A program made the position numbers. This document shows positions 12,301 through 15,300 of a DNA stretch of 64,000 nucleotides, piece by piece; within the stretch, counting starts at the first letter, position 1; each line of letters begins with the position of its first letter. Source of the stretch: an uncultured Coxiellaceae bacterium (GTDB lineage Bacteria; Pseudomonadota; Gammaproteobacteria; DASZBR01); contig CAZLGL010000008.1 in NCBI GenBank assembly GCA_964559315.1, positions 31,065 through 95,064 of the forward strand. The letters are read 5' to 3'.

Positions 12301-15300
12301 ATATAACAAATTAATTTGTTTCGTATCCCCCGTTACGCCTATAAAGTCGGGATTATATTTTATGGCATATTTTTTCAGTGCGTCCAAAGAATCATCAGCA
12401 GGATCAATCGACACAAAGACGATTTTCGGAATGGGCGTTTGTTTTTGCGCAGCTAATAAATGAACCATTTTATTTAATTCACTCATCGTGCCCGACATTT
12501 CTTCCGAGCCATGGGTTGCCGCACCAAATACTATAAATGTCCAATGCGCCCACAGGGTATTATTGTTAAACGGTTTTCCATTGGAATCCACTAAGGAAAA
12601 TTTATCGATGTCTTTGGGCGGTGATAACACATACGCATTTAATCCACCTGAGGTTTGAGTCGAACCCGTGTGATGCCATAATTTCATTCCGATCACTAAA
12701 GCAAAAAGCGCGACAATTGCAATCAATATATTTAATCTACTCATTCTGTGACTCTCCGCATTAAGATAAAACAGTCCTGTAAATTTCTTAGAATTCTATA
12801 TAAAATCAAGCTTTGAGGAAACTGTATGATTATCACATTGATTGCCGCCATGACACCACAACGTGTCATTGGAAAAAATAACCAACTGCCGTGGAACATG
12901 CCAGCGGATCTGGCGCACTTTAAAAAATTAACCGTGGGCAAACCCGTGATTATGGGACGCAAAACGTATCAATCGATCGGACGACTTCTACCGGAACGTA
13001 AAAATATTATCATCACGCGCGATAAAGATTTTCAGGTTGATGGCGCAGAAATTTTTCATGACATTCCTTCCGCTTTTCATGATTTAAAAGAATATGCGGA
13101 AGTGTGTGTCATTGGCGGCAGTGAAATCTTTAAGCAAACATTAACCCTCGCCAACGTTTTAGAACTAACGTATATCCAAGCGGCCATAGATGGTGATAGC
13201 TTTTTCCCTGAATTTGATACAGATGAATTTAAAGAAGTGGCGCGCCAAGAAAACAAAGCAGATGAAAAGAATCCGTATGATTATACTTTCTTAACTTTTA
13301 AGCGAATTTAATTTATAGGTCATCCTGAGCAAGCGGATCGAGTCGAAGGATGATATAGGTTATACAAACTTCACCATAAAAAACAATTCCGTCGGATGAT
13401 CTTTCGGTGACCACGCCCGCTCATAAATCATATGTATTTGTGTTTGAAGAGGTGGTTTTCGAAATGCTTTAGGCTTTGCGTGAAATACCCAAATGGTTTT
13501 TCCACCTGCTCCAATTAATTTTGAGTTCGGCACCAAATATTTTTCAGTTTTTAATGTCATCAATGATTTATCGTAGATAACACGCCATCGATAACCTGTC
13601 GTTGCATTGGACGGCTGAGTAATTTTAAATTCGGGGGAATCGCGCGTTACGGCAATGGTTTCAGCTTCAGCAAGAGCAAATAAAGGAAATAACGCCAAGA
13701 CAATACTGCATAAAATCCGCTTAAGCATAACTATCTCTCCAATTGATATGGAACATCCACAAATACGCGTGTGCCGCCTTTGTGTTTTCGATTAAACATC
13801 AACGACGCCTTTAAAAATAAACTGCGCTGATTATGCAACATGTCATGCCACCACCGTGTTGGAATCGCTTGCGGAAATACTAACATACACAAACCACGCT
13901 CGGGTTCGCGATTATCTTGTTGCCGAATAAACTTTCGCAACGGATCAATTGCCGCACGATATGGCGACTCTAAAACTACCAACGGAATTTTAATGTTTAA
14001 CTGCTGCCAATCGGATTCTAGTTTTCGCGTTTGCACAGGATCTAAGGCTACCGCAACTGCCGTCACATCATCAGACACACCTTGCGCAAAATTTAATGCC
14101 GCCAGTGTTCCGCGATGTATACGAGAAACCGGCAAAACAACCTTGGGTTTAATTCCCGCAATTTTATCCAGATACTGATTCGCTTGTGCCGTTGTCATCG
14201 ACAATTCATGATCAATCACAACATAATGGTGATGGATCTTATAAAATCCCATCAAAAGTACTGGCACACACAACACAACAAGCCACGCACCCTCCACAAA
14301 TTTACTTTCAATAATCACCGCCAATGCAATGGTCGTCGCAGCAAATCCCAAGCCATTGATAAACGCTTTTGCTTTCCATCGCTGCGTTTTCTTTTTAAAC
14401 CAGTGACTCACCATACCCAATTGCGACAAACTGAATGCACTGAATACACCGACCGCATACAATGGAATCAATAAATGGGTTTCCCCACCAAAAATAATTA
14501 TTAAAATACTCGACACTACAGCAAGCAATACAATACCGTTTGAAAATGACAAGCGATCGCCCAAGCTGGTTAATTGTTTCGGCAAATATTTTTTCTCTGC
14601 CAAAATTGAAGCCAACCGAGGAAAACCTGCAAAAGCCGTATTCGCCGCTAACAATAAAATGGCCATCGTTGAAAACTGCAATGCAAAATATAAAAATCCA
14701 TCACCAAATACTTTACGGGCTATCTGAGACAAAATACTTTGTTTTTCTTGGGGCACTAACATTAAATGGTCGGCCAAATAGGTAACACCAAAGAACATGA
14801 TGATTAATAAGCCTGCGAGCAATACTAATGTCATTGCTGCATTCCGTGCTTCAGGTTTTTCAAAAACGGGGACGCCATTCGCTACACATTCAATTCCTGT
14901 CATAGCAGTACAGCCTGCAGAGAACGCGCGTAAAATTAAAATAATGGCAACGGGCTGAGCCAGATCAGAGAGCTGGGGTTGATAACCGGGAATATGATGC
15001 GGAGGAATGTGCCCCGTAAAAACGCCATAACTTCCCATCCCAACCAATATTAATACTAAAAAAATAAATGCATAGGTTGGAAGTGCAAAAGCGGTTGCAG
15101 ATTCACGCACACCACGCAAATTCATGATGGCAATTATGGCAACAGAAATTAATGATAGACCTACAGAATGTTCATATAAAAAAGGAAAAGCAGACGTCAC
15201 GGCACGAACACCTGCCGTCACACTGACTGCCACCGTTAAAACATAATCTATTAATAGTGCGGCAGCGGCAATTAACCCAGCTCCCTCGCCTAAATTTTCG

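Follow-up and report, generated by a model that had tools for sequence, protein, structure and literature searches.

What does the short gene that converges on folA in this stretch of DNA (the window, 64 kb at its full length) encode, and, if the product is an inhibitor of cysteine peptidases, whose peptidases would it encounter? The icp gene spans 13360..13728 on the minus strand, stop codon included, and constitutes an ATG..TAA ORF for a 122-aa precursor of a chagasin-family (I42) inhibitor (ICP) with the sequence MLKRILCSIVLALFPLFALAEAETIAVTRDSPEFKITQPSNATTGYRWRVIYDKSLMTLKTEKYLVPNSKLIGAGGKTIWVFHAKPKAFRKPPLQTQIHMIYERAWSPKDHPTELFFMVKFV. The position and length match exactly those given in an earlier, sequence-only reading of this DNA, and the three strings that were singled out there, SNATTGYRW, LIGAGGK and ERAW, are all located in the icp product, at residues 40–48, 71–77 and 103–106, respectively. 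Six-frame translation reveals a single I42 domain within the whole window. The gene is under purifying selection, with dN/dS values of 0.10–0.28, at saturated dS, in comparisons with orthologues of 49–68% identity. Overall, icp represents an ordinary type of exported bacterial protein that is recognizable to standard annotation pipelines, and the NCBI annotation of the orthologue in the MAG GCA_033763845.1 (P0002) reads 'protease inhibitor I42 family protein'.

Family, fold and inhibitory loops

In the I42 profile search that the sequence-only reading had called for, Pfam returns one match for ICP, namely to PF09394 (Inhibitor_I42), which covers profile positions 7–88 of 91 with E=5.2e-15 and a score of 55.9 bits (gathering cut-off, 27.2). 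An NCBIfam scan of ICP matched 0 models. Among the sequences of the PDB, the best phmmer match is the Pseudomonas aeruginosa inhibitor of cysteine peptidase (PA-ICP, PDB 2WGN; E=1.4e-6), followed by five chagasin entries at about 3e-6, and these alignments pair NATTG with NPTTG, GAGG with G(S/A)GG and RAW with RPW. An AlphaFold2 model of ICP, for which a 61-sequence alignment served as input, has a mean pLDDT of 92.9 and a pTM of 0.78, and displays a helix at residues 2–17 as well as strands at residues 23–28, 33–40, 46–51, 57–65, 76–84, 95–104 and 113–121. These strand positions place the three motifs in the β2–β3, β4–β5 and β7–β8 loops, corresponding to the L2/L4/L6 topology of chagasin, and the predicted fold is an Ig-like β-sandwich with L2, L4 and L6 at one end. 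Indeed, the ten best Foldseek matches of the model within the PDB are all ICPs, and the matches comprise EhICP2, chagasin (either free or bound to cathepsin L or falcipain-2), amebosin and PbICP-C. EhICP2 (amoebiasin-2, PDB 3M86) and PbICP-C (falstatin, PDB 3PNR) are too dissimilar in sequence for phmmer to have retrieved them from the PDB. PbICP-C carries extra insertions and is placed in a separate MEROPS family, I71 (the falstatin family), and ICP has no sequence match to falstatin/PbICP-type inhibitors. Profile, fold and loop positions together bear out the earlier proposal of a signal-peptide-bearing chagasin/ICP (I42) with three inhibitory loops, and the β-sandwich with three loops on one edge that this proposal entailed is seen in the predicted structure, in agreement with the solved structures of the chagasin family.

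ICP is a member of MEROPS family I42 by profile and fold; its L4 conforms literally to the family motif, and both L2 and L6 carry a Pro-to-Ala change that is seemingly tolerated. The literal motifs of the family are NPTTG (NP[ST][ST]G) for L2, a pair of hydrophobic residues and then GxGG for L4, and RP[WF] for L6. Loop L2 (residues 40–48; 13585..13611, minus strand), which is situated between strands 33–40 and 46–51, aligns with NPTTGF of chagasin and PA-ICP and reads NATTG, such that N, T, T and G are kept and Pro is replaced by Ala42. Loop L4 (residues 71–77; 13498..13518, minus strand) resides between strands 57–65 and 76–84, aligns with LLGAGG of chagasin and matches the motif in full with L71-I72-G73-A74-G75-G76. 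Loop L6 (residues 103–106; 13411..13422, minus strand) aligns with RPW of chagasin and PA-ICP and reads R104-A105-W106, with R and W retained and Pro again substituted by Ala.

Residue counts drawn from 303 sampled I42 domains indicate how common these changes are. At position 42, 231 of the 303 domains have Pro and 39 have Ala; at position 105, Pro is found in 205 domains, Ser in 60 and Ala in 22 (non-Pro in about 30%), and the glycines of L4 are near-invariant (G73 in 303/303, G76 in 302/303). Pro is absent from both positions in 18 domains, and six (2%), ICP included, have Ala at both, making ICP a mildly useful example of a natural double Pro-to-Ala loop variant. The three nearest orthologues read N(S/G)(T/R)TG in L2 and ERPW in L6, and the presence of ERPW in all three suggests that Ala105 is a recent change in the lineage.

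The sequence-only reading had also regarded bacterial ICPs as uncommon. This premise is wrong, as seen from single-sequence phmmer against a database of 1.84 billion representatives at 50% identity, which recovers 1400 clusters at E<=1e-3 (177 of them at E<=1e-10), many being multi-domain, from the 972 proteins at E<=1e-10 in a profile search, and from the report of ICP orthologues in all pseudomonads (bioRxiv 10.64898/2026.06.02.729523). The named relatives in the profile search are nearly all 'protease inhibitor I42 family protein' of Legionella, including L. cardiaca, L. clemsonensis, L. hackeliae, L. brunensis, L. jamestowniensis, L. taurinensis, L. nagasakiensis and others. These Legionella I42 proteins (for example L. 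cardiaca P0210 and L. pneumophila 130b ORF 10290) are the closest named relatives of ICP, with 35–41% identity, and are similar in that they have a signal peptide and a length of about 120–127 aa. Scans of genome contigs yielded no match besides the MAG contig JANRJR010000012. In terms of the family as a whole, what icp contributes is one more exported I42 inhibitor, here of an uncultured lineage of gammaproteobacteria, with little import beyond annotation.

Export and genomic context

The N-terminal 20 residues of ICP (13669..13728, minus strand) form a predicted Sec signal peptide without a lipobox, which consists of MLKR followed by ILCSIVLALFPLFALA and ends at a putative ALA|EAE cleavage site. 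Signal peptide and cleavage site were assigned heuristically by simple rules, namely hydropathy and the -3/-1 rule: MLKR provides a basic n-region, a hydrophobic core of 16 residues follows, and ALA|EAE fits the -3/-1 rule. A hydrophobic N-terminus is shared by 218 of 230 single-domain homologues, and a lipobox-like string is present in just 17 of these 230 single-domain relatives. A lipobox with an acylated Cys is absent from ICP, where the sole Cys is residue 7, which follows R-I-L inside the h-region and is not conserved among orthologues; the mature protein would comprise 102 residues of about 11.9 kDa, with a pI of about 9.8, and is Cys-free. Because Cys7 lacks a lipobox and the mature part contains no Cys, ICP is predicted to be soluble and non-lipidated, and to be periplasmic or secreted.

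The signal-like N-terminus supports export to the periplasm. Release past the outer membrane may follow by analogy, the one basis for this being the L. pneumophila 'Proteinase inhibitor I42 chagasin protein', which is 17-fold enriched in wild-type supernatants compared with those of an lspF (T2SS) mutant (PMC12239567). No T2SS genes were seen within the 64-kb window, and for the Legionellales branch of I42 the literature searched offers this secretome listing of the L. pneumophila homologue but no biochemical characterization. The predicted export distinguishes ICP from chagasin of Trypanosoma cruzi (I42.001; PDB 2NNR, 2NQD, 2OUL, 3CBJ, 3E1Z), which is cytosolic/vesicular, lacks a signal peptide and controls an endogenous protease, and which carries NPTTG and RPW where ICP has NATTG and RAW. 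PA-ICP and the Pseudomonas proteins Cip1/Cpi1 are likewise bacterial, exported I42 proteins; however, the Pseudomonas ICPs are lipoproteins on the surface or on OMVs (bioRxiv 10.64898/2026.06.02.729523) and keep the canonical NPTTG and RPW, whereas ICP has neither the lipobox nor the canonical L2 and L6.

The gene upstream of icp (13731..15599, minus strand) encodes a KimA-type K+ transporter of the APC superfamily (622 aa) and is probably co-transcribed with icp. In a phmmer search of the PDB, its product aligns over residues 8–604 with KimA (PDB 6S3K), the K+ importer of B. subtilis, at E=5.5e-152; its Pfam label is AA_permease_2 only. The stop codon (TAG) of the kimA-like gene and the ATG of icp are 2 nt apart, within a junction, CAATTGGAGAGATAGTTATG, that is conserved in two related loci (L002 and L009), and a Shine-Dalgarno sequence, GGAGAG (13735..13740, minus strand), is embedded within the last kimA codons 6 nt before the icp ATG. 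A consensus scan gave no convincing icp-specific promoter or terminator, and co-transcription of icp with kimA is thus the simplest reading.

On its other side, icp faces the convergent folA (12826..13311), beyond which lie a SCO1/SenC gene and tdk. The 48-nt gap between icp and folA contains a 7-bp inverted repeat, TCATCCT...AGGATGA, that occurs once in the window. As a candidate terminator (13320..13353), this repeat was rejected, since its predicted folding does not surpass that of shuffled sequence (z -0.46), and the shuffled-like folding together with the single occurrence suggests that it is probably not functional in termination.

The kimA-icp pair recurs in at least three related metagenomic lineages (L002, L008 and the contig of P0185). 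The order mfd, kimA-like, icp and convergent folA is found in a MAG contig, the ICP of which is 68% identical, and also in an ENA scaffold (ICP 49%) and another metagenome contig (ICP 55%). In contrast, the ICP gene of L. cardiaca stands alone elsewhere in the genome, where it adjoins cspA-like and YkuD genes and is uncoupled from kimA. Synteny extends over the whole block, and for this reason the linkage between kimA and icp need not be functional.

Predicted mode of action and alternative readings

We consider it likely that icp encodes a Sec-exported, soluble I42 inhibitor, the likeliest targets of which are foreign papain-like proteases, and that it is the distal gene after kimA. We infer the inhibitory activity, cleavage site, final location and target as follows. 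The signal peptide of ~20 residues would direct the mature 102-residue protein out of the cytoplasm via Sec, and the mature protein, predicted to be an eight-strand Ig-like β-sandwich, would present NATTG of L2, LIGAGG of L4 and RAW of L6 at one end, from which the loops would plug the active-site cleft of cysteine peptidases of the papain-like type (family C1). By analogy with chagasin as bound to cathepsin L, cathepsin B, papain and falcipain-2 in solved complexes, inhibition would be tight, reversible and 1:1. The inhibitor would act in the periplasm, or perhaps outside the cell after type II secretion as for the Legionella homologue, and its likeliest targets would be foreign papain-like proteases that the cell encounters, such as the lysosomal or digestive cathepsins of a host or predator, whether protist or animal. 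Expression of icp would proceed from a two-gene unit in which it follows the gene for the KimA-type transporter. If so, icp is a hint of encounters between this lineage and eukaryotic papain-like proteases.

The loss of the L2 and L6 prolines could alternatively mean that ICP is a degenerate or repurposed I42 fold that no longer inhibits, for example a periplasmic Ig-like binding module. NATTG and RAW both deviate from the canonical motifs, the Ala/Ala pair is rare, the retention of RPW by the three closest orthologues marks Ala105 as recent, and P92 of chagasin is described as holding R91 and W93 in their orientation within the cathepsin L complex (PMC2607524), with no P92 (L6) mutant being reported in the chagasin mutagenesis study (PMC2607524). 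Nevertheless, we judge such a loss of function highly improbable. The protease-contacting residues T43, T44, G45, Y46, W48, G73, G76, R104 and W106 are all kept, and the P30A substitution in chagasin, which is equivalent to the NATTG change, leaves picomolar Ki values (20 pM with cruzipain, 45 pM with cathepsin L), a cost of only 3–6-fold (PMC2607524). Moreover, about 30% of the family domains are non-Pro at position 105, dN/dS is low, and the loops are kept at high confidence in the model. Rather, since the side chains described as contacting the protease (T-T-G, Y/F-x-W, GxGG and R..W) are retained, we take ICP to be probably an active inhibitor, perhaps with shifted specificity.

An active inhibitor could, however, employ the same fold and mechanism against an exported C1-family peptidase of its own cell, as a self-protection or timing device such as chagasin provides for cruzipain. 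There is precedent for this in the regulation of endogenous cruzipain by chagasin (PMC2607524) and in the T2SS of L. pneumophila, which exports both the C1-family NttB/Lpg2622 (PMC6617341) and the I42 protein (PMC12239567), and bacteria widely encode short C1A peptidases that have signal peptides (PMC10380794). Yet no C1 peptidase was found in the 64-kb window, either by tblastn with a papain query or by a scan for the CGSCW-type motif C[GSA][SAT]CW, nor does one adjoin icp in either syntenic locus (L002, L008) or the L. cardiaca gene (L006). In addition, P. putida retains an ICP without having a C1 peptidase of its own, and the Pseudomonas Cip1/Cpi1 proteins inhibit papain-like proteases of the host plant, with an IC50 of 22 nM for a maize PLCP (bioRxiv 10.64898/2026.06.02.729523). 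An endogenous target thus appears possible but unlikely, and we have a weak preference for foreign targets because no protease gene is linked to icp in any locus examined. The 2-nt gap, the Shine-Dalgarno sequence inside kimA and the conservation of the pair in four lineages, with ICP identity down to 49%, might instead suggest that ICP is a partner of the KimA-type transporter, such as a periplasmic accessory or protective subunit, and not a free inhibitor. Such a role is hardly credible when it is considered that the entire mfd-kimA-icp-folA-tdk block is syntenic and may reflect general conservation of gene order, that the ICPs of Legionella are encoded elsewhere and stand alone, and that the solved KimA entries among the PDB matches bear KimA or APC permease names only.

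Conserved translational coupling, the KimA identity of the transporter and weak hints of host association (a leucine-rich-repeat protein, and an orphan that may contain a cysteine-protease/NADAR module; see below) raise the idea that kimA and icp are a conserved 'vacuole survival' unit, in which acid-favored, proton-coupled K+ import would be combined with an exported inhibitor of host lysosomal cathepsins, and the Pro-less L2 and L6 would reflect a retuned target specificity; we regard this as a long shot.

Other features of the window

The window is a piece of ordinary chromosome, with clpA, icd, radA, tdk, folA, mfd, mutS, dcw genes, glycolysis genes and a polyamine-type ABC transporter, at a GC content of about 40%. 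Exact copies of its proteins are confined to a single NCBI contig of 109,914 bp. The nearest named relatives of RadA are 65–67% identical, and the MAGs that they come from carry the label Gammaproteobacteria or Legionellales. At such identities, a Legionellales-like affiliation would be a guess, and the intracellular lifestyle assumed in the sequence-only reading a supposition. GC skew stays below zero in almost all 4-kb bins of 1..64000 (cumulative -1.61), and on this ground a single replichore probably accommodates the entire window, with the + strand lagging.

Two adjoining genes on the minus strand encode a leucine-rich-repeat protein (35002..35964), the best Pfam match of which is a plant F-box LRR model, and a pentapeptide-repeat protein of 506 aa (36100..37620). 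Together with several orphan ORFs, these eukaryote-like repeat proteins could represent weak hints of host association. One such orphan (9520..11547, plus strand, 675 aa) has an orthologue with 55% identity in a MAG (L002, 9144..11096, minus strand), and scans of metagenomes gave no further homologues. The sub-threshold Pfam matches of this orphan are to Peptidase_C39 (residues 355–428, E=0.002–0.01) and NADAR (residues 554–604, E=0.0005–0.018), and it contains a conserved string, H-F-V-L ... D ... E-Q ... N ... W-S-C-G-Y, in which the order and spacing of His, Asp, Gln and Cys presumably recall the effector proteases of clan CE (Ulp1-like). A single-sequence AlphaFold model of the orphan, with a pLDDT of 41.8, was unusable. 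Four further ORFs encoding 401–531 aa (7980..9509, plus; 19987..21402, minus; 41064..42659, minus; 6657..7862, plus) have no Pfam or NCBIfam match above threshold, and the last of these has a weak match to a Piwi domain (E=0.0016, 18 bits against a gathering cut-off of 28.9).

In the dcw region, where murE and murF are usually found between ftsI and mraY, a single Mur-ligase ORF (32685..33866, plus strand, 393 aa) separates ftsI (31025..32713) from mraY (33911..34993). This ORF overlaps the end of ftsI by 29 nt and has no match to the N-terminal Mur_ligase domain, and a second Mur ligase of 501 aa is encoded apart from it on the other strand (26492..27997, minus). The arrangement may reflect either a rearranged dcw cluster or a mis-called start.
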